Assembly: GCA_958452575.1 (NCBI GenBank)
Contig: CAUDUM010000007.1
Location: 87,127 to 151,126 of the forward strand
Reading direction: 5' to 3'
Origin: an uncultured Eggerthellaceae bacterium
GTDB lineage: Bacteria > Actinomycetota > Coriobacteriia > Coriobacteriales > Eggerthellaceae
Length of the DNA: 64,000 nucleotides
The position numbers and the translations under genes were made by a program. The notes beneath the pieces were generated by a model that searched no databases, was not told the origin of the DNA, and worked only from the letters and a program-made list of their open reading frames with translations. Positions 3,905 to 55,760 of this stretch are shown one piece after another. Position 1 is the first letter of the stretch, and every line of letters starts with the position of its first letter.

Positions 3905-4993
3905 CTAGCGATACAGCCGATCGATCGCGGGCTCCACCGCCTCGAACGCCTTCAGCAGCTCGGGGTTGAAGGCGCCGCATTCGCCGCCGGTGATCATCTG
4001 CATGACCTTCTCGCGACCGTATGCGTCCTTGTACACGCGCTTGCTGCGCAGGGCGTCGTACACGTCGGCGAGCGCCACCACCTGCGACCACACGCTGATC
4101 TCGTCTCCGACGAGCCCATCGGGGTAGCCCCGCCCGTCCCAGCGCTCATGATGGTGACGCGCGATGTCGACGGCGAAATCGTAGGCATCCAACTGGCGGA
4201 ACTGGGGGATCCGCTCCATCATGTCGGCTCCCACGACCGTATGCGACTTGATCACCTCGAACTCCTCGGGCGTCAGCCGTCCGGGCTTGCACAGGATCGC
4301 GTCGGGGATGGCGATCTTGCCCACATCGTGCATCATCGACGCCATTTCGATCGCGTCGATCTCCTCGGAGGTCAGCGACGCTCCCAGCGGCGTGCCCTCG
4401 AGCATCAGGCGTGTGATCGTGCGGATGCGCCGCACGTGCTCGCCCGACTCGCCGTCGCGGAACTCGATGGCGGCGGCCAACGCCTCGATCATGCCGTTGC
4501 TCAGGGATATGATGCGCTTCGCCTGCTCGAGCAGCTGGGTCTGCTGGCTTTCGACCGTGTTGCTCAACCGCCGCCGCGATTGGTACAGCTCGATGACGGA
4601 TTCGACGCGCCGCTCCACCACGTAGGGCACGATCGGCTTGCCGATGACGTCCATGACCCCCAGGTCGTAGGCGCCGCGCGTCACGTCGAAATCGGTCTCG
4701 GCGGTGATCAGGAACACGGGGATGCGCGCCAGCAGGTCGCGTTTGACAAGGTTTTGCAGCACCTCCAGGCCGTCCATGCCCTCCATGGCAAAGTCGAGGA
4801 GGATGGCGCAGTAGCGCATCGGATCGGCAAGGACCAGCGAGAGCCCCTCGCGACCGTCCTCCGCTTCCTGGATGTCGTGGTTCGATTTGAAGATCTCGCC
4901 GAGCACCAGGCGCGTGATGGGGTCGTCGTCGACGATCAGGATGGTGTTGGGCTCGCTATCCAACGGTCCGAGAGTGATGTCTTCGTGTGCCAT
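3905..4993 (-). CDS. response regulator with HD-GYP phosphodiesterase domain (RpfG-like)
   Basis: REC domain (ILIVDDD...LLDFAMEGMDG) plus HD-GYP (HHERWDGRGYPDGL). Start moved to the ATG at 4993, which is preceded by AAGGAGAG. Confidence 0.85.
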   Translation of the reverse strand: MAHEDITLGPLDSEPNTILIVDDDPITRLVLGEIFKSNHDIQEAEDGREGLSLVLADPMRYCAILLDFAMEGMDGLEVLQNLVKRDLLARIPVFLITAETDFDVTRGAYDLGVMDVIGKPIVPYVVERRVESVIELYQSRRRLSNTVESQQTQLLEQAKRIISLSNGMIEALAAAIEFRDGESGEHVRRIRTITRLMLEGTPLGASLTSEEIDAIEMASMMHDVGKIAIPDAILCKPGRLTPEEFEVIKSHTVVGADMMERIPQFRQLDAYDFAVDIARHHHERWDGRGYPDGLVGDEISVWSQVVALADVYDALRSKRVYKDAYGREKVMQMITGGECGAFNPELLKAFEAVEPAIDRLYR

Positions 4994-5169: not shown

Positions 5170-6876
5170 ATGCTTACCAGTGATACCGAGAAACTGTATC
5201 CTTCCGCCAAGACGCTGGTGAAGGATTGCATCGCAAGTCGCATCCATGCAAAGGATGCCTCCGTGTACGACTTCTCCGACGAAGCGCGGGAGTGCGCCGA
5301 GGAGTTCATGGGCTGGACCGATCTTGCCAGCAACCCCCCGTATCCGCTTGAGGAGATCCAGAGATTCGCCGACGAGGTCATCGAGGCGGGGCTCAAGACC
5401 GTCGTCCTCATCGGCCAGGGCGGCTCTACCCAGGCGCCGATGACCATCACCAAATACAACAAGCCGGATTCCACGCGGATCAAGTTCCGCACCATCGACT
5501 CCGACTCGCCGGTCCGCGTGCGCGCGATGCTCGCCGAGATCGATCCCAAAACCACGCTGTTCGTCATCTCGTCGAAAAGCGGCGGCACCATCGAGCCGCG
5601 TCTGATGCTGCGCGCGGTGCGCGAGCAGCTTGCCCCGGTCATGTCCGAAGACGAGATGGTCAAGCATCTCGTCGCGATCACCGATCCCGGCTCCCAGCTC
5701 GAGCAGCAGGCAAAGCAGGAAGGCTGGCGCGCGGTGTTCCCGGGCGAGCCGTCCGTGGGCGGCCGGTTCTCCGCGCTGTCGGTGTTCGGCCTTTTGCCTG
5801 CAGCGTTGGTGGGCATCGACCTGAAGACCTTCGTCGAGCACGGCGCCGAGGCCGAGCGCGTCTGCAGCGAGGACGCCATCGACAACCCGGCAATCGGCTT
5901 GGCGGCGTTCCTGTACGACAACTACCTTGCCGGCCGCAACAAGTTCTCGTTCCTCACGCAGAAGCGCGGCCGCGTTCTGGGCCTGTGGATCGAGCAGCTG
6001 GTGGCGGAAAGCCTGGGCAAGCACGGTCAGGGCATCCTGCCCAACATCGAGATCGATTCGCTGCTTTTGACCAAGGATCCCGGCGACCGCACGGTCGTCA
6101 TGTACCAGACGCGCAACGACCTGTGGGATGAGCGCCACAACTTCGAGATGAGCCTTTCCTACATCGACTCGTCGATTCCGCGCGCCAACTACAAGATCGA
6201 CTCGGTCGAGGAGCTTCCCGAGCACTTTGTGATGTGGGAATACGCCATCGCGATGTGCGGCTATCTGATGAAGATCTGCCCGTTCGACCAGCCTGACGTG
6301 TCGGCCGCCAAGGCGGAGGTGCTCGGCATTCTGCGCGACGGCCATCCCGAGCCCGATTTCGTGCAGGATTTCTTCGGCGACGTCCACATGGGGCAGGCGG
6401 AGGTTCGCCTGGCGCCGTGCTTCAAGGATTGCACCGACATCTACGGCGCCCTCAGCGCGCTTCTCAACAGCATCCAGCCGGGCGACTACTTTGCGCTGAA
6501 CGCGTTTCTCCCGTTCACGGGCGAGGGACGCCGTGAGGCGTTGGAGCAGATCCGCCACGGAGTGGCCGACAAGCGCGGCGTCGCGTCGTGCCTGGAGGTG
6601 GGTCCGCGCTACCTGCATTCGACCGGCCAGCTGCAAAAAGGCGGCCCCAATTCGGGCGTGTTCCTCATCCTGTCCGCCGACGAGCTCAAGGACATCCCGC
6701 TCAAGCAGGAGGCCGAAAGCCTGGGAACGCTGGCAAAGGCTCAGGCCGAAGGCGATCTTCTGACGCTCGCTTCGCGCGGCCGCCGTTGCGTGCACCTGCA
6801 CCTGCCCGACAACTCAAGCGTGACCATCCGCGCTCTGGCGGAGATCATCGACTCCATTCTGGATACGCGCGCCTGA
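5170..6876 (+). CDS. pgi: glucose-6-phosphate isomerase (PGI family, SIS domains)
   Basis: PGI signature VGGRFSALS. Also IGQGGSTQAP and ISSKSGGTIEP SIS motifs. Confidence 0.8.
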   Translation: MLTSDTEKLYPSAKTLVKDCIASRIHAKDASVYDFSDEARECAEEFMGWTDLASNPPYPLEEIQRFADEVIEAGLKTVVLIGQGGSTQAPMTITKYNKPDSTRIKFRTIDSDSPVRVRAMLAEIDPKTTLFVISSKSGGTIEPRLMLRAVREQLAPVMSEDEMVKHLVAITDPGSQLEQQAKQEGWRAVFPGEPSVGGRFSALSVFGLLPAALVGIDLKTFVEHGAEAERVCSEDAIDNPAIGLAAFLYDNYLAGRNKFSFLTQKRGRVLGLWIEQLVAESLGKHGQGILPNIEIDSLLLTKDPGDRTVVMYQTRNDLWDERHNFEMSLSYIDSSIPRANYKIDSVEELPEHFVMWEYAIAMCGYLMKICPFDQPDVSAAKAEVLGILRDGHPEPDFVQDFFGDVHMGQAEVRLAPCFKDCTDIYGALSALLNSIQPGDYFALNAFLPFTGEGRREALEQIRHGVADKRGVASCLEVGPRYLHSTGQLQKGGPNSGVFLILSADELKDIPLKQEAESLGTLAKAQAEGDLLTLASRGRRCVHLHLPDNSSVTIRALAEIIDSILDTRA

Positions 6877-7096
6877 CGGCACGAGCATGCCGCCGACGCT
6901 GCGAAAGGCCTGGCACCGGATCTCGCGGCGATTACGAATGTCCTGCGCAATCAAGTTGCGCAGGACGCGCCCGCTCGGACGTATAGACAGGAATCGAACA
7001 AGCCAGAGGGCTTGTTCGATGCGCACCGGAGTACGCGCGTCCGCGCGATCCCCACGAACCCCGACATCAGGGTCCTTCTCGCTGACGTTGCGAACG
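6877..7096 (+). repeat. intergenic repeat family 1, copy 4 (longest copy, upstream of hypF)
   Basis: 5' anchor GCCGACGCTGC at 6892-6902 and 3' anchor CTCGCTGACGTTGCGAACG at 7078-7096. Contains two extra perfect hairpins, gtcctgcgcaa/ttgcgcaggac and atcgaacaagcc/ggcttgttcgat. Confidence 0.7.
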
Positions 7097-7136
7097 CGAT
7101 GTGAGATGATTGGTGCTGTTGAGAAAGGGGAGCCCA

Positions 7137-23265: not shown

Positions 23266-23928
23266 GTGAGCAGCAACGTCATCGTGGTGGGATGCGGACG
23301 AGTGGGTTCGCAGCTTGCCAACATGCTTTCCGACAACGGCGACAACGTATGTGTGATCGACCGAAACGCCGATGCGTTCGCCAATCTGGGCCGCAACTTC
23401 AACGGCGCCACCGTCCAGGGGATCGGCACCGACAGCGACACGCTTGAGAAAGCCGGCGTCGAGGAGTGCGATGTGCTGGCGGCCGTCACGCAGTTCGACA
23501 ACACCAATTTGATGGTGGCGCGCGTGGGAGGCCTGCTTTACGACGTCCCCCACGTGATCGCCCGCCTTTACAACCCCGATCACGAGCGCGCTTACATGCA
23601 GCTCGGCATCGACTACGTGTGCGGCACCTCCCTTGTGGCCGAGGACGTGTTCGGCAAGATCGTTTCCGGCCATGGATCCCACCTGGACACGTTCGGGGAG
23701 TTCGAGGTGCTGCGCTTCTCGCTTGATCTGAGCTGGGCGGACAAGCGCACCGTGCGCGCCGGCGAGCTGGAGCGCGACCACGATATCCGCGTGGTGGCTT
23801 TCGAGCGCAGCGATGGCTCGGCAAGCTCCATCCCCACCAAGGACTCCATCCTCTACCATGGCGATTCGCTGCTGGTGTGCATCAGGCACGACCTCATCGA
23901 TTCGTTCTCCAAATACATCCAGGAATGA
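23266..23928 (+). CDS. trkA: TrkA-family K+ transport NAD-binding protein (N+C domains)
   Basis: GTG start after GGGAAGGGAG. VIVVGCGRVGSQLA Rossmann motif. Confidence 0.8.
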   Translation: MSSNVIVVGCGRVGSQLANMLSDNGDNVCVIDRNADAFANLGRNFNGATVQGIGTDSDTLEKAGVEECDVLAAVTQFDNTNLMVARVGGLLYDVPHVIARLYNPDHERAYMQLGIDYVCGTSLVAEDVFGKIVSGHGSHLDTFGEFEVLRFSLDLSWADKRTVRAGELERDHDIRVVAFERSDGSASSIPTKDSILYHGDSLLVCIRHDLIDSFSKYIQE

Positions 23929-23930
23929 GG

Positions 23931-24081
23931 GGTTCCGCCGACTTGCCAGCCGGCGGAACCTGCCGACGCTGCAGCGTTCTTCGGCACCGCGCCTCGCGGC
24001 GATGACGGGGGCTCGCGTACCGAAGTGCGCTTCGCCTCCACCGTCCCCACGATTCGCGGCACCGGAGAAGCCCTCGCTGAC
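23931..24081 (+). repeat. intergenic repeat family 1, copy 1 (between the two trkA genes)
   Basis: Hairpin GGTTCCGCCG...CGGCGGAACC, then GCCGACGCTGC (23962-23972), GCGTACCGAAGTGCGCTTCGCCT, and CTCGCTGAC (24073-24081). Confidence 0.75.
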
Positions 24082-24119
24082 AGCATGGGCAAATGCATAT
24101 CAAACCAGGAGGTGGTTGT

Positions 24120-34162: not shown

Positions 34163-34166
34163 TTTC

Positions 34167-34253
34167 GTTCCGCCGGCCTGACGGCCGGCGGAACTGGCCG
34201 CCGCTGCGACCGCCTGAGGCACCTCAGGCGCTCTCGCTGACGTTACGAACGAC
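34167..34253 (+). repeat. intergenic repeat family 1, copy 2 (short form)
   Basis: Hairpin GTTCCGCCGGCC-TGAC-GGCCGGCGGAAC, GCCGCCGCTGC, and 3' anchor CTCGCTGACGTTACGAACGAC (34233-34253). Confidence 0.75.
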
Positions 34254-34312
34254 AAGGGAGGCAATGGCGGTCGAGGGTGATAATTTCGGGGGTGCGACCT
34301 TGCGGTCGGGCC

Positions 34313-34388
34313 CCCGTTTGTTTAGGCTCGCCGTCCTGGTGGGATGCTGCGGCACCCGGCGGCAGGACGGCGGCCCTAGGCAAACGGG
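34313..34388 (+). promoter_or_regulatory. 26-bp imperfect hairpin abutting the RBS of the CCG-protein gene (candidate RNA leader structure)
   Basis: cccgtttgtttaggctcgccgtcctg pairs with caggacggcggccctaggcaaacggg. Three positions are G-U on the + strand RNA only. Confidence 0.5.
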
Positions 34389-34403
34389 AAAAGGGGGTTG
34401 GCA

Positions 34404-37699: not shown

Positions 37700-38578
37700 A
37701 TGGCGGAAAAGAAGCAAGCGTTGCTGCTGTTCAGCAAGCCCCCGGTTTCGGGCAGGGTCAAGACCCGCCTGACCATCGAACATGGCGGGTTCATGACGCC
37801 CGACGAGGCGGCCGATTTCTACAAGCGCTGCCTGTACGATGTGTCCGAGCTGTGCATGCATTCGCTCATCGAGATGCAGCGCGCCAATGACGCCGCGGTC
37901 GCGGCGGATCCGTCCGTGGACAAGATCACCTACGATTTCTTCGTGTCGACGCCCGCTGCCGACATCGACATCATGAAGGCGACCTACGACGAGATCGGCC
38001 CATGGCCCATGGAGATCCACTACCTCACCGACAAGGGTGCCACGTTCGACGATCACTTCGATTACGCTTTCAAGCAGATCTTCGACGAGGGCTACGAGCA
38101 CATCGTATCGGTCGGCGGCGACATCCCCACGCTGCCCAAGTCCCACATCAAGCAGGCGTTCCAGTGGCTCGACTACTTCCAGGCCTGCGGCACGCCGGGC
38201 TTCGTGCAGGCGCCGTGCCAGGAATGCGGCACGTCGCTGGTGGGTTTCAGCTACAACACGCCCATCAACCATCAGGGCATCTATTACAACATGGACGGCC
38301 GTCCCGCGCTCGACGGCTACGTCGAGAAGCTGAAGGCGGCCAACATCCCGTCTGCGTACTTCTCGCCGGTTGCCGATATCGACGAGCGTACCGACCTGGC
38401 CCACGCCATCTCCTGCATGCGCGCGATCGCCGAAGCGGGCAAGTACCAAAACGACGTGTTTGTTCCCCAGCGCGTGCTCGATTGGGTCGACTGGTATGGC
38501 ATCACCGTGTCCACCCCTCCCAACGAGGAGCACGACCCGCGCCAGTACCTCGACGAGGTTGAGGACGAGGAAGAGTAG
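37700..38578 (+). CDS. DUF2064-like (TIGR04282-type) nucleotide-diphospho-sugar-transferase-fold protein
   Basis: ALLLFSKPPVSGRVKTRL N-terminal motif. RBS GAGGAGGA. Confidence 0.6.
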   Translation: MAEKKQALLLFSKPPVSGRVKTRLTIEHGGFMTPDEAADFYKRCLYDVSELCMHSLIEMQRANDAAVAADPSVDKITYDFFVSTPAADIDIMKATYDEIGPWPMEIHYLTDKGATFDDHFDYAFKQIFDEGYEHIVSVGGDIPTLPKSHIKQAFQWLDYFQACGTPGFVQAPCQECGTSLVGFSYNTPINHQGIYYNMDGRPALDGYVEKLKAANIPSAYFSPVADIDERTDLAHAISCMRAIAEAGKYQNDVFVPQRVLDWVDWYGITVSTPPNEEHDPRQYLDEVEDEEE

Positions 38579-38739
38579 TTCCGTTGGCCTACCGGCCAAC
38601 GGAACGAGCCGACGCTGCGGGGAGCCCCCGCACCGAATCTTCGCGCGATCCTGCAGGCTTACGTACCAAAGTGCGCTTCGCCTGCACGATCCCATGAATC
38701 TTCGGCACGGGGGCTCCCCTCGCTGACGTTACGAACGAC
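38578..38739 (+). repeat. intergenic repeat family 1, copy 3
   Basis: Hairpin GTTCCGTTGGCC-TACC-GGCCAACGGAAC, GCCGACGCTGC (38608-38618), TACGTACCAAAGTGCGCTTCGCCT, and CTCGCTGACGTTACGAACGAC (38719-38739). Confidence 0.75.
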
Positions 38740-38741
38740 CA

Positions 38742-40142
38742 GTGAGAAAAGAGATTGTCTTGGCTATTCCAAACAACAACGATTCCGTGAAGGTGGCGCA
38801 CGTTGCCCAGGAGGGCAGCGCGCCGCGCGTTGCCGGGCATCGGCACCTGCACAACACGATCGGCCTGTGCCCGGAGTGCCTGCGCGAGCTGAAGGCCGAC
38901 GTCTACGCCGACGACGAGGGCACCGTGTGGATGGAACGCACCTGCCCCGACCACGGGCCGCTCACCACGCGCGTGTGGCCCGACGCAGACCATTACCAGT
39001 GGCTGCTGTCCGAGGCGTTCCCCAAGACCAAGCCGCAAAACACCATCCCGGCCGGCGCGCCGTGCCCCTTCGGCTGCGGCACGTGCTCGCGCCACGAGCG
39101 TCGCGGCACGCTGCTCGAGATCGAAGTGACCAAAAGCTGCAATCTGCATTGCCCCGTGTGTTTCATGAGCTCCGAGAACGGCGATGACGATCCCACGATG
39201 GATGAGATCGACGCCATGTACGACGTCATCGCCAACGCTGTGGGCACCGACGGCGCCGTTCAGCTGACCGGCGGCGAGCCGACCTGCCGCAAGGATCTGC
39301 CCGAGATCATCTACCATGGCCGCGAGAAGGGCTTCTGGGGCATCGAGGTGAACACGAACGGCCTGGTCATCGCCTCGCGTCCGGGATATCTGGAGGATCT
39401 GGTGGGCGCGGGCCTGACCGGCGTGTACCTGTCGTTCGACGGGCTGACCGGCGATGTGTACGAAGGTACGTGCGGGCGCGACATCCTCGATATCAAGCTG
39501 CGCGTCATCGAGCGCTGCCGCGAGGTGGGCATCCAGTGCGTGCTGTCGGTCGCCGTGGTCGCGGGTCTCAACGACGGTCAGCTGGGCGATCTTCTGCGCT
39601 TCAGCTTGGAGAATTCCGATGTGGTCGCCGGTCTGGCGCTGCAGCCCGCGTTCGTGTCCGGCCGCTTCGAGGCCGAGCGCGCGATGCAGCTGACGGCGGG
39701 CGATGTCATCTTCAAGCTGGCCGAGCAGTCCGACGGGCTCATCGAGCCGCGCGACATCTGGCCGCTCGGCTGCTCCAACCCGTTGTGCGACACCGGCGTG
39801 TTTTTGGTGCGCACCGACGAGGCCGTGCATAAGAGCGGGTTTGTTCCGGCGACGCAGCTGCTCACGCCCGAGGAATACCGCGAAGGCTACAGTCCCGACA
39901 GTCCCCAGGGCTCGGTGTTCCTGGACATCCTGTCCAAACGCGGCGTCAAGGTGAAGGACGGTTTGTCCGTCATCATCATGAACTACATGGACGCCTGGTC
40001 GATGGACGTGCAACGCCTGCGCGAGTGTTCGATGATGGTGACCGTCCCCGACGGCCGCGCCATCCCGTTCTGCTCGTACCACTTGACCGACGCCGACGGC
40101 CGCCGCGTGTATCCGCCCTGGTGCAAGGAAGAGCTGCGTTAA
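38742..40142 (+). CDS. radical SAM enzyme with N-terminal zinc ribbon (COG1964-like architecture)
   Basis: GLCPECL...TCPDHG zinc ribbon, CNLHCPVC (Cx3Cx2C) and a C-terminal IMNYMDAWSMD...PFCSYH block. The exact start codon is uncertain because there is no clear SD. Confidence 0.8.
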   Translation: MRKEIVLAIPNNNDSVKVAHVAQEGSAPRVAGHRHLHNTIGLCPECLRELKADVYADDEGTVWMERTCPDHGPLTTRVWPDADHYQWLLSEAFPKTKPQNTIPAGAPCPFGCGTCSRHERRGTLLEIEVTKSCNLHCPVCFMSSENGDDDPTMDEIDAMYDVIANAVGTDGAVQLTGGEPTCRKDLPEIIYHGREKGFWGIEVNTNGLVIASRPGYLEDLVGAGLTGVYLSFDGLTGDVYEGTCGRDILDIKLRVIERCREVGIQCVLSVAVVAGLNDGQLGDLLRFSLENSDVVAGLALQPAFVSGRFEAERAMQLTAGDVIFKLAEQSDGLIEPRDIWPLGCSNPLCDTGVFLVRTDEAVHKSGFVPATQLLTPEEYREGYSPDSPQGSVFLDILSKRGVKVKDGLSVIIMNYMDAWSMDVQRLRECSMMVTVPDGRAIPFCSYHLTDADGRRVYPPWCKEELR

Positions 40143-40151
40143 TCGTGCGGG

Positions 40152-40271
40152 CGCGGAGCGGAAGGGGCGGGGCTCCGTGCTCAAACAGGTCCTGAGCTCG
40201 CACGAAACGCCCACTGGGCGTTTCGGCTCGTGCGGATACTGCGCGCGGAGCCCCGCCCCTTCCGCTCCGCG
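40152..40271. repeat. palindromic element family 2, copy A
   Basis: 25-bp perfect outer stem (40152-40176 with 40247-40271) enclosing a 70-nt core that is shared, inverted, with 60918-60993. Confidence 0.85.
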
Positions 40272-40408
40272 GCGAGATTATCTTGCTCAGGGACGGGGGT
40301 GTTCGCGCTTTGCGCGAATTGCGGAGGGCCGATTTTGCGCGTCTCTTTCTTATAAGATATGGTCTACTATGCATGAAGCAAGAAGAGTGACCAAGACGAG
40401 AGGTTTAC

Positions 40409-50918: not shown

Positions 50919-52073
50919 ATGATCGAGATCCAAGGACCAGAGTCGATCGAGAAGATGCCGATCAAAACAGACGAAGCCGAGCTCGAGAGCTGCCTTGCCG
51001 ATCAAGGCGATCTCGAAAGTAGCGAGGACCTTGTCGAGCGAAACGATCTCGAAAGTAGCGAGGGCCTTGTCGAGCAGGGCGATCTTGAAAGCAGCGACGA
51101 CCTTGCCGATCAGGTTGACGCGGGCGCCGAAGACGGCCACGAGTCCGATTCCGACACGACCCAAGATCTCGATCCCTCTGCGTCCGCTTGCGTCTACGAT
51201 GCGGCGCGGCTTGCCTCCCTTCTTCCCGGGCCGGCGTCGGATGCTCACAAATACTCGCGCGGCAAGCTGACCATCGTCGGCGGCGCTGCCGCGTATCCTG
51301 GTGCAGCGTGCCTTGCGGCGGCGGCCTCGCAGCGCATGGGTGCGGGATACACCGAGGTCGTCTGCGCTCCGGAGTCGGTGCCGACGGTGCGTGCGTTTCG
51401 CGCATCGCTCGTCGTGCGTTCGTGGGAGGATCTCGATTCCTCGTCGTTCGCGGACGCGCGTCCGGGGCGGCCTGTCGCCTACGCGGTCGGCAGCGGCCTC
51501 GATGCGGCGGGTGATTCCGCCGTCGAGGCCAAGCGCCTCGTCCACCGTGCGCTCAAGCATGCCCACGCCCCTCTTCTCGTGGACGGAGGCGGTTTGACGA
51601 CGCTCGCCTCCGACAAGGGGCGCCGTCTGATGCGTCGGCGTTTCGTCAACGGGTGGCCGACCGTCATCACGCCCCATGCGGGAGAGGCTGCCCGCCTTGC
51701 CGCACCGCTTGACCTGCCGACCGACGATTCGGAGCGGCTCGCCCGTCTTCTGGCGCTCGCCTACGGTGCGATCGCCGTGGTCAAGGGCCCCGACACGTTC
51801 GTCTCGGACGGCGAGGGTGTCGTGCGCGTGACCGAGGGCACTGCCGCGCTTGCCAAGGCGGGCACGGGCGACGTCCTTGCGGGGATACTGGGCGCGCTGC
51901 TCGCGCAGGGGCTCAACCCCTTCGACGCGTCGGTTCTCGCCGTCACGCTCCATGCGCGCGCCGGGCGCCTTGCCGCCGATCGCCTGACCGCCATCAGCGT
52001 CATCGCCGAGGACGTCGTCGCAATGATCCCTGCCGCTATCCGCTCCGTGGCGGACAAACGCATCCCGCGATAG
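50919..52073 (+). CDS. nnrD: ADP-dependent NAD(P)H-hydrate dehydratase (YjeF C-terminal domain) with an acidic repeat N-terminus
   Basis: KYSRGKLTIVGG, VITPHAGEAARL and AKAGTGDVLAG. ATG at 50919 after GGGAGGAGG. Confidence 0.8.
   Translation: MIEIQGPESIEKMPIKTDEAELESCLADQGDLESSEDLVERNDLESSEGLVEQGDLESSDDLADQVDAGAEDGHESDSDTTQDLDPSASACVYDAARLASLLPGPASDAHKYSRGKLTIVGGAAAYPGAACLAAAASQRMGAGYTEVVCAPESVPTVRAFRASLVVRSWEDLDSSSFADARPGRPVAYAVGSGLDAAGDSAVEAKRLVHRALKHAHAPLLVDGGGLTTLASDKGRRLMRRRFVNGWPTVITPHAGEAARLAAPLDLPTDDSERLARLLALAYGAIAVVKGPDTFVSDGEGVVRVTEGTAALAKAGTGDVLAGILGALLAQGLNPFDASVLAVTLHARAGRLAADRLTAISVIAEDVVAMIPAAIRSVADKRIPR
51009..51116 (+). repeat. 3 x 36-nt in-frame tandem repeat (DLESSEDLVERN-type)
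   Basis: gatctcgaaagtagcgagg(a/g)ccttgtcgagc... is repeated, and the third copy is diverged. Confidence 0.85.
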
Positions 52074-55280: not shown

Positions 55281-55760
55281 CATCTTGAGACGGTCAACGA
55301 GGAGCTGCAGGCAGCCAACGAGGAGCTGCTCACCACCAACGAGGAGCTGCAGGCTGCCAACGAGGAGCTCTACACGGTCAACGCCGAGTACGAGCAAAAG
55401 CTCGACGAGCTCACCGACACCACCAACGACCTGACGAACTTCCTGTCGTCCACGATGATCGGCATCCTGTTCTTGGACAACAATCTCAATATCCGCAAAT
55501 TCACCGAATACGTGGGCCGCGAGTTCAACATCATGGCGCATGACGTGGGTCGCAGCATCCAGATCGTCGCGCATCTGTTCCAGGACATCGACATCGTGGA
55601 GGATGCGGAGGCGGTTCTGCGCAGCCTCATGCCCATCGACAAGGAGGTCACGACCGTCGACGGCAAAAACTACACGCTGCGCATTGCGCCGTACCGCACG
55701 ACGGAGAACAGCATCGAGGGTCTGGTGCTCACCATCATTGACAGCATCGGCGAGAAGTAG
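55281..55760 (+). pseudogene. 5'-truncated remnant of a CheB/CheR-PAS type signalling protein (coiled-coil plus PAS only)
   Basis: The open frame from 55233 encodes ...LETVNEELQAANEELLTTNEELQAANEELYTVNAEYEQKL..NDLTNFLSSTMIGILFLDNNLNIRKFT... and then a PAS-like 100 aa. There is no methyltransferase or esterase part and no start/RBS at the homology boundary. Confidence 0.6.

Follow-up and report, generated by a model that had tools for sequence, protein, structure and literature searches.

What is the intergenic repeat that lies between the DUF2064 gene and the rSAM gene of an uncultured Eggerthellaceae bacterium, and on which nucleic acid strand does its structure matter? The region belongs to a stretch of 64,000 nucleotides (nt) of contig CAUDUM010000007.1 (GenBank assembly GCA_958452575.1, positions 87,127 to 151,126), hereafter called the window. 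An earlier reading of its letters, the original prediction, had recognized four dispersed repeats in it and had proposed an RNA-level intercistronic element rather than a repetitive extragenic palindrome (REP). We found that positions 38578-38746 of the window are a complete copy, approximately 170 nt long, of a mobile DNA repeat. The family to which it belongs is previously undescribed and is of the general kind "bacterial dispersed palindromic repeat". The explanation that we prefer, giving it roughly an even chance, is that it represents a new family of non-autonomous mobile palindromic repeats, which behave like REPs and their relatives and like Rickettsia palindromic elements (RPEs), and which are retained only in sense-transcribed units.

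A covariance model trained on 69 copies from other genomes only, and then run on the window, returned exactly four copies, every one on the + strand (Table 1), which corroborates the four co-oriented copies of the original prediction. The minus-strand matches of the model at these copies comprised the palindromic 5′ hairpin alone. A weak match on the minus strand at 4044-4206 (11 bits, E 0.06) may be either a decayed antisense copy or a chance match. The 3′ anchor CTCGCTGACGTTACGAACG occurs exactly in two of the copies and with one mismatch in a third, all on the + strand, with 0.02 occurrences expected. The GTTCCG..CGGAAC hairpin pattern occurs three times, with 0.01 expected, and the differences among the inner stems of these hairpins are compensatory, so that the covariation claimed for them was real. 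Both features had been assigned to all four copies; the hairpin is indeed present in three, but the copy at 6877 has only a 5-bp mini-hairpin, CGGCAcgagcaTGCCG, and the anchor is likewise present in three, but the copy at 23931 has only CTCGCTGAC. The numbering of the copies in the prediction was scrambled: the identical anchors are those of the copies at 34167 and 38578, the CGTACCRAAGTGCGCTTCGCCT block is present in the copies at 23931 and 38578, and it is the copy at 38578 that ends 3 nt before a called GTG start, the copy at 34167 lying approximately 145 nt upstream of the CCG gene. The anchor itself had been placed correctly as a 3′ feature, but the unit does not end with it and extends 9 nt further, through the tail ACCAGTGAG, to position 38746.

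A canonical copy consists of a 5′ hairpin (HP0), a 5′ block, a rod, the anchor and the tail, in approximately 170 nt. HP0 is a 28-nt, 12-bp GC hairpin with a conserved outer GTTCCG/CGGAAC and an inner 6 bp that covary among copies. It is followed, after 2-4 nt, by (C)CGACGCTGCG, and GACGCTGCG is invariant in 69 copies. The rod, of approximately 100 nt, is fixed in length and shape and free in sequence, the spacing from block to anchor being 108-112 nt in approximately 70 of 82 copies. It is built from P1 (approximately 11 bp), a conserved tandem C.A/A.C loop inside GCACC/GGCAC, P2 (5 bp), a 2x3 loop, P3 (7 bp), inner helices and an apical YGAA-type loop; in the focal copy, the tandem internal loop in GCACC/GGCAC and the inner helices are followed by the apical stem CGTAC-CAAA-GTGCG. 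The anchor of the unit is invariant, and the tail, with the consensus ACCTGnGAG, reaches 9 nt past it and gives way to a weakly T-rich stretch, seen in the position frequencies as a slight excess of T at +10 to +13 past the anchor. The tail may pair with the CTCGC of the anchor, and RNAalifold pairs the 5′ block with C..GC.G.CGTT of the anchor; the bases of this block-anchor pairing and of the tail hairpin CUCGC/GYGAG are invariant, so that neither has covariation support. The two ends of the element (GTTCCG... and ...ACCTGnGAG) are not mutual reverse complements, and terminal inverted repeats were thus not found. A long form carries approximately 75-95 extra nt in the 5′ arm, folded into three small hairpins, two of which covary around a conserved GCGCCCnCTCGGnCGnATAG hairpin; this insert is common to several genera. 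Partial 5′ or 3′ modules occur in tandem at loci L025, L050 and L108 and at L083, L090 and L107 (L numbers denote the loci compared).

The pairing of this structure was assessed over 29 pairs predicted by RNAalifold. Standard pairs occupied 92.8% of the cells, as compared with 66.3% in column shuffles and 35-44% with slid partners, and two-sided changes were found in 524 cells, with 162 expected, compensatory changes being present at 21 pairs. Selection acts on the fold. For the focal copy, the folding energy is -99.9 kcal/mol on the sense strand (z = -9.6) and -111.4 kcal/mol on the antisense strand.

The element is mobile, at present or in the recent past, as indicated by its gain, loss and decay between close relatives and by near-identical copies at unrelated loci. 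Sites were compared among genomes that share 82-92% identity with the window. One of these (L028) has no copy in the DUF2064-rSAM gap, another (L009) has a rod-deleted copy there, and the window has a full one. The gap after the rSAM gene contains a full copy in L028 only, and none in the window or L009. Two different deletion forms occupy the gap behind the nrfD-like gene in the window and the orthologous site in L028, and the breakpoints of deletion derivatives are variable. Pairs of copies at unrelated loci of the same genome are 95%, 93%, 90% and 89% identical, and the rod of the window copy at 23931 is 92% identical to that of a copy at an unrelated locus in Candidatus Aphodovivens avicola (L021).

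Copies are also found inside genes. The leuS gene of Gordonibacter sp. An230 contains a stop-free antisense copy of 56 codons in the loop between EVDF and ITVFTTRPDT, that of a related metagenomic genome (P0032/L109) contains a sense copy in the identical loop, and the leuS genes of eight other relatives are without the insert. Further in-frame copies were found in recQ (two species), hypF, rimI (two species), an RNase II-like gene and a peptidase-like gene, and one of the rimI copies has lost the rod between GCTGCG and GTTGCG. The in-frame copies in open reading frames (ORFs) number at least nine, two of them antisense. The recQ gene of MGYG-HGUT-02023 (L079, 3400-3670) holds two tandem in-frame copies, the second of them decayed; this gene has lost the zinc-finger cysteines (CxxC) found behind the insert in L019 and may be degenerating. 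Just upstream of the leuS gene with the sense copy, L109 carries a type I restriction-modification locus (1-2105), in which hsdM, a split hsdS and a phage-integrase-family recombinase form a phase-variable shufflon arrangement.

No target-site duplication was seen when the empty site of L028 (GAGTAA followed by TGGGAAAAAGGG) was compared with the filled site of L009 (GAGTAG, the element ending in ...GTGAG, and then TGAGAAAAAGGG), and a candidate GAAGA repeat in leuS is out of frame. At seven loci with several copies, clustered or oppositely oriented, we found no adjacent transposase, REP-associated tyrosine transposase (RAYT), integrase or reverse transcriptase, and the neighbors were all housekeeping genes.

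An exact-anchor search of one-genome-per-species GTDB contigs (596 Gb) returned 108 stretches, of which 100 were from Eggerthellaceae or unclassified Coriobacteriia; the eight from unrelated phyla approximate the chance expectation, by our own arithmetic, for an 18.5-base pattern in 596 Gb. The carriers include Adlercreutzia, Gordonibacter, Eggerthella, Enteroscipio, Rubneribacter, Candidatus Aphodovivens, with whose species Ca. Aphodovivens avicola the window is 90-92% identical over 6 kb, and Candidatus Aveggerthella. A single metagenome-assembled genome has up to 28 anchor loci, and the copy number is patchy among species, from one remnant to more than 28. Rfam 15 gave no match at gathering thresholds in the whole window, and at E≤10 the focal copy matched generic miRNA-hairpin models only, far below threshold; a known RNA family was therefore rejected. 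Full-text literature searching yielded no earlier account of the element. A plasmid, phage or virus origin was rejected on zero matches in plasmids, phages and IMG/VR. A profile search with the element-encoded peptide for a parent protein brought up nothing but short hypothetical ORFs and a single fragment from E. lenta, and public databases contain spurious "hypothetical proteins" of 56-97 aa that are translations of copies, among them records of Rubneribacter badeniensis and Eggerthella lenta. The family is set apart by its size, constant-length rod, composite build, strict polarity and stop-codon abutment.

The polarity and abutment emerged from a census of 83 complete copies away from locus ends, with genes on all loci called by a simple codon-usage gene caller; 9 of these copies lie within ORFs and 74 are intergenic. 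The HP0 end lies ≤12 nt from the stop of the gene reading into the element in 58 of the 74 intergenic copies, and the tail end lies ≤12 nt from a convergent stop in none. In 75 of 80 scored copies the upstream gene runs the same way as the element, making the co-orientation originally predicted both real and very strong; a divergent gene lies upstream of only 5 copies. The start of the next gene is ≤12 nt away in 14 copies, 13-60 nt away in 7 and farther in 37, and the next gene is convergent in 15; in 21 of the 74, a gap of ≤60 nt to the next start is taken up entirely by the element. The genes downstream of the 74 intergenic copies show neither a fixed distance nor a common class. The element is thus tied to the upstream stop, and not, as had been supposed, to a position just upstream of the next gene. 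Where the adjacent gene and the remaining locus are opposed in direction, the element sides with the adjacent gene 7:0, and replication direction as the source of the orientation bias was rejected on this ground. Read-through or a C-terminal extension was also rejected, as the open frame of the element shows no bias in its phase relative to the stop (26:17:14). In the one resolved case of a site with an empty allele, the element stands exactly between the stop codon and the native hairpin-plus-T-tract terminator. A crude finder detected a terminator-like hairpin with a T-tract ≤160 nt after 31 of 61 copies with no close downstream gene and after 72 of 255 control gene ends. Copies are essentially always within a transcription unit and in the sense orientation. 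Stop usage among 514 called genes of the Eggerthellaceae loci and the window was TAG 52%, TAA 33% and TGA 14%, a usage that is unusual for genomes of approximately 63% GC.

The two strands of the element differ in how well they fold. In RNA folding, 69 of 74 copies give the more stable structure from the antisense strand (mean -77 versus -66 kcal/mol); standard pairs at 21 variable positions amount to 90.1% in the sense and 92.7% in the antisense strand, and copy by copy the antisense strand pairs better at variable positions in 31 and the sense strand in 10. Isolated mismatches in otherwise perfect helices are, on the sense strand, mostly A.C (73), C.C (59) and C.U (54), with G.U (24), G.G (6) and A.G (1) in the minority, and G-U single-step intermediates are almost absent from the covariation table. 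Neither the rarity of these intermediates nor the better antisense fold would be expected under selection on a sense-RNA helix. The sense strand has a GC skew of -0.07 within the element, as against +0.03 in its flanks; because the element is C-rich and the flanks are G-rich, background mutation bias does not explain the asymmetry of the mismatches, and a mutational origin of this asymmetry was rejected. The mismatch pattern is a strong hint that the fold matters on the mRNA-complementary strand, as single-stranded DNA or antisense RNA, and no proof, because the copies counted are phylogenetically non-independent; the same pattern would also arise if sense RNA were selected for true pyrimidine mismatches.

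We classified the family as a bacterial dispersed palindromic repeat because it departs in defining features from miniature inverted-repeat transposable elements (MITEs), REP/RAYT systems, attC sites, palindrome-associated transposable elements (PATEs), intrinsic terminators and 5′ leaders. The closest parallels in behavior are the REPs of Proteobacteria, with the bacterial interspersed mosaic elements (BIMEs) and REPINs that they form and their RAYT Y1 transposases. Many REPs stand at most approximately 15 nt from a stop codon, and they influence how mRNA decays and is translated. Like them, the element is a dispersed palindrome at gene 3′ ends and in intercistronic gaps, forms module mosaics with a conserved stem foot and a variable remainder, is transcribed into mRNA 3′ regions, and is without terminal inverted repeats, target duplication or a gene of its own. 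It differs from REPs in its phylum, in its larger, composite build (170 nt, with a constant 100-nt rod and a separate 28-nt hairpin), in having no GTAG-plus-short-palindrome signature and in its strict polarity to the upstream ORF; its in-frame copies mean that it is not strictly extragenic, and the housekeeping neighbors at the seven loci examined include no RAYT gene. RPEs are palindromes of approximately 100-150 bp that occur between genes and also in frame in ORFs, where they add a peptide segment to essential proteins. The element shares this in-frame and intergenic occurrence, which is a likeness of behavior alone: taxon and sequence are unrelated, and the element is mostly intergenic, behind stops. 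RPEs are not known for stop-codon abutment or strict polarity.

Other classes fit less well. IS200/IS605-derived PATEs and the omega- or re-RNAs are similarly strand-specific with hairpins near both ends, and PATEs are non-autonomous, moved in trans on single-stranded DNA, and likewise without terminal inverted repeats or target duplication. However, a conserved 4-5 nt target 5′ of the left end was not found here, nor was a full-length insertion sequence (tnpA/tnpB) with the ends of the element in 0.87 Mb of loci, and the central rod is unlike known omega-RNA scaffolds and has no Rfam match. Mycobacterial interspersed repetitive units (MIRUs) are also actinobacterial repeats in intercistronic operon gaps, co-oriented with genes, but they are short tandem units without long hairpins, whereas the element is a single-unit palindrome. 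MITEs (Correia, ERIC, Nezha) were rejected for want of terminal inverted repeats and target-site duplication. An intrinsic terminator was rejected, as none was called at the window copies and HP0 is followed by nnGCCGACG with no U-tract; canonical terminators are situated farther downstream of the element. No outward or antisense sigma-70-type promoter was called in the element, only a bare TAACGT being present on the antisense strand. A 5′ leader or riboswitch-like regulator was rejected on the distant starts (>60 nt in 37 of 74), the 15 convergent neighbors and the unrelated downstream genes. A retron msr/msd was rejected by reasoning on the copy number, the absence of an adjacent reverse transcriptase and the hairpin outside the a1/a2-like pairing, and a rut-type Rho site was rejected as the sense strand, although C-rich, is 30% G and fully structured.

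In the explanation that we prefer, the element would be moved in trans by an enzyme that recognizes the hairpin, folded on single-stranded DNA, at its conserved bulged foot, on the model of REP/REPIN, IS200/IS605 ends or attC. Such recognition would account for the conservation of shape and foot amid drift elsewhere in the element, and for the better fold of the mRNA-complementary strand. Polarity and stop abutment would come from insertion specificity, from selection for sense transcription, or from both. Once in mRNA, the element would form a very stable 3′-UTR (untranslated region) or intercistronic structure, which may secondarily affect decay, processing or read-through. Movement in trans on a folded single strand is an inference, since no mobilizing enzyme, autonomous parent or insertion mechanism was found at the loci inspected, and this is the first of several points that weigh against our preference. 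The gap between stop and HP0 is variable (0-7 nt), no conserved 5′ target was found, positions -1 to -6 being T/A-enriched only, and a preference for a particular stop codon was rejected, as TAG is the commonest stop yet is not enriched beside copies; no known transposition mechanism accounts for a 58:0 polarity combined with such a gap. The same sites are occupied across genera (upstream of purD, in pheS-pheT, after frr and after a gene ending in KKCGKDID), and these same-site copies, with their fold kept and their sequence turned over, fit host-level function or concerted evolution better than neutral relics. The long form goes beyond a simple DNA palindrome in its complexity, having three additional covarying hairpins and a conserved motif that is unpaired, solo anchors persist after loss of the remaining element, and the mismatch counts come from non-independent copies.

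Some of these points speak for the model of the original prediction, which we regard as possible though doubtful: a cis-acting RNA module, co-transcribed with the upstream gene, whose hairpins would be cleaved in RNase III-type processing, hold back 3′ exonucleases or act as an attenuator. HP0 would melt when a ribosome terminates at the stop, the tail (GYGAG, Shine-Dalgarno-like and perhaps masked by CUCGC) would modulate how the next cistron is initiated, and mobility would be merely the means of spread. Consistent with this model are the strict sense polarity, the abutment within reach of a ribosome at the stop, the allegiance to the adjacent gene, the insertion ahead of a native terminator and the copies that fill an entire gap. 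The identical operon-internal sites with a kept fold across genera, the extra covarying hairpins of the long form, a tail hairpin with G.U or G.G opposite an invariant G on the sense strand, and the stability of the sense fold also accord with it. The prediction was right in expecting conservation in related genomes, where even the same intergenic sites are occupied in several genera, and in expecting a sense bias, which holds among the intergenic copies; it had counted copies inside genes as evidence against an RNA element, and by this criterion of its own it fails in part, since those in ORFs, the antisense ones included, could not act in this way. Its polarity and covariation stand, but the preference for an RNA-level element over a REP is opposed by the near absence of G-U intermediates, by the disruptive C.A, C.C and C.U mismatches on the sense strand, by the better antisense fold and by the mobile-repeat behavior. 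The downstream genes, without a fixed distance or class and convergent for 15 copies, the very patchy copy number, and the block-anchor pairing and tail hairpin without covariation likewise disagree with the module. An RNA-level effect, such as on processing or stability, is nevertheless possible.

If instead the better-folding strand were itself a transcript, the copies could be antisense small RNA (sRNA) genes of approximately 160 nt, starting near the reverse complement of the anchor with a TANNNT-type -10 (TAACGT), folding into a G-U-rich rod and ending at the palindromic HP0 against the stop of the convergent gene. Antisense folds and standard pairs would favor this, the sense mismatches would become RNA-tolerated G.U, G.G and G.A, TAACGT is invariant in the anchor complement, and HP0 gives the same hairpin on both strands. 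We consider it very unlikely: no -35 element is conserved, promoter calling gave nothing in the window copies, approximately 15% of the anchors have G at the would-be -12, A-rich or variable sequence rather than a U-tract follows HP0 on that strand, and such a gene inside operons of the pheS-pheT type would collide with operon transcription. Unlikely too is a strict attC- or REPIN-like folded single-strand recombination site, where a hairpin-specific recombinase or an HUH enzyme would act on the bottom strand of [..AAC - block - rod - CTCGCTGAC - GTT..] and insert the element beside gene ends in one orientation. Integron attC sites do lie directly after or over the stop of the preceding ORF, co-oriented, and keep structure while sequence is free; a bulged conserved foot, an AAC...GTT base (here CGGAAC ... 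GTTACG) and a better-folding bottom strand, the active one in attC sites, are further likenesses, to which the lack of target-site duplication and recurrent breakpoints exactly between CTCGCTGAC and GTTACG can be added. However, the box candidates GCGGAAC and GTTACGA each depart from the R″ (RYYYAAC) and R′ (GTTRRRY) consensus at two positions and pair at 5/7, and HP0 belongs to the unit in ORF-internal copies. The copies are single and dispersed, without arrays, cassettes or intI, among core genes in conserved order (pheS-pheT, frr, purD, trkA, hypF), and the loci inspected contain no integrase or HUH gene. Beyond these models, it is possible though doubtful that the family is a new kind of system, either an orientation-specific "gene-end homing" element acting on the folded mRNA-complementary strand or a widespread, structured class of 3′-UTR or intercistronic RNA that senses the terminating ribosome. 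In the former case, a hairpin-specific enzyme of Actinomycetota would recognize the bulged foot and insert the element immediately after stop codons, in a system that would match attC/IntI or REPIN/RAYT in function and differ from them in mechanism.

Table 1. Coordinates of the window copies, their parts and the long-form copies of other loci (window numbering unless a locus is named).
Feature	Position	Strand	Remarks
Focal copy, covariance-model match	38574-38747	+	162 bits, E 7e-43
23931 copy, covariance-model match	23928-24100	+	101 bits
34167 copy, covariance-model match	34163-34261	+	94 bits
6877 copy, covariance-model match	6858-7106	+	64 bits
Focal HP0	38578-38605	+	5′ hairpin GTTCCGTTGGCC-TACC-GGCCAACGGAAC
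Focal 5′ conserved block	38608-38619	+	GCCGACGCTGCG
Focal rod	38620-38718	+	rod-like imperfect hairpin; P1 GGGGAGCCCCCG/CGGGGGCTCCCC
Focal 3′ anchor	38719-38737	+	CTCGCTGACGTTACGAACG
Focal tail	38738-38746	+	ACCAGTGAG; placed by position frequencies and the filled-versus-empty site boundary after ...GTGAG
34167 copy, whole	34167-34260	+	internal-deletion derivative; begins 4 nt past TAA of nrfD-like gene
34167 copy, HP0	34167-34194	+	
34167 copy, block	34197-34208	+	GCCGCCGCTGCG
34167 copy, rod stub	34209-34232	+	inside of rod lost
34167 copy, anchor	34233-34251	+	exact
34167 copy, tail	34252-34260	+	ACAAGGGAG
23931 copy, whole	23932-24081	+	rod of full length; begins 3 nt past TGA of first trkA gene
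23931 copy, HP0	23932-23959	+	
23931 copy, block	23962-23973	+	
23931 copy, partial anchor	24073-24081	+	CTCGCTGAC; first 9 nt only, remaining anchor and tail missing
6877 copy, whole	6877-7105	+	long form, without HP0; directly after TGA of pgi
6877 copy, mini-hairpin	6877-6892	+	CGGCAcgagcaTGCCG; 5 bp
6877 copy, block	6892-6903	+	
6877 copy, rod (long form)	6904-7077	+	with additional three-hairpin insert
6877 copy, anchor	7078-7096	+	1 mismatch
6877 copy, tail	7097-7105	+	CGATGTGAG
Long-form copy, L003	1640-1854		
Long-form copy, L005	2707-2921		
Long-form copy, L090	534-753		
Long-form copy, L052	4790-5045		

At the focal copy, G38578 is both the first G of HP0 and the final base of the upstream TAG stop, and the called GTG start of the rSAM gene (38742) falls within the tail. 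Comparison of window positions 38738-38790 with L009 3290-3350 and L028 4975-5030 showed that the native terminator (GAGAAAAAGGGACAGTCACTTTTTCTC) and the ATG of the rSAM gene are missing in the window only. The start of the rSAM gene in the window is uncertain because the ATG of the relatives is missing there; the GTG at 38742 lies in the element tail, and the TTG at 38761 is an alternative. Just after the rSAM gene, at 40147-40290, stands a long inverted repeat of another kind (GCGGAGCGGAAGGGGCGGGGCTCCG ... CGGAGCCCCGCCCCTTCCGCTCCGC), which encloses a hairpin and is kept in Ca. Aphodovivens avicola (L009), L028 having a copy of the present family there instead; it may be a second repeat family. 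Between the copy at 34167 and the CCG-domain gene, two hairpins (GGGGGTGCGACC..GGTCGGGCCCCC and GTTTGTTTAGGCTCGCCGTCCTG...CAGGACGGCGGCCCTAGGCAAAC) occupy positions 34262-34397 and are common to L028 with compensatory differences; they may be a leader structure of the CCG/molybdopterin-oxidoreductase operon. Three tandem 36-nt repeats with 83% identity (50993-51100) and three overlapping repeats spaced by 21 nt (55295-55378; CAACGAGGAGCTGC...) are probably coding repeats.

Eggerthellaceae such as Eggerthella, Gordonibacter and Adlercreutzia are gut bacteria that metabolize drugs and polyphenols, and their genome dynamics and regulation are poorly known. The repeat described here sits in the 3′ UTRs and operon gaps of their housekeeping genes, and in frame in leuS, recQ, hypF and rimI. 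It disturbs gene calling, spurious ORFs of 56-97 aa and wrong start codons being already in databases, and it will affect assembly, strain typing and possibly mRNA fate. Its sense-only placement, set against its better antisense fold, poses a testable puzzle, namely whether the element is selected as DNA or as RNA.

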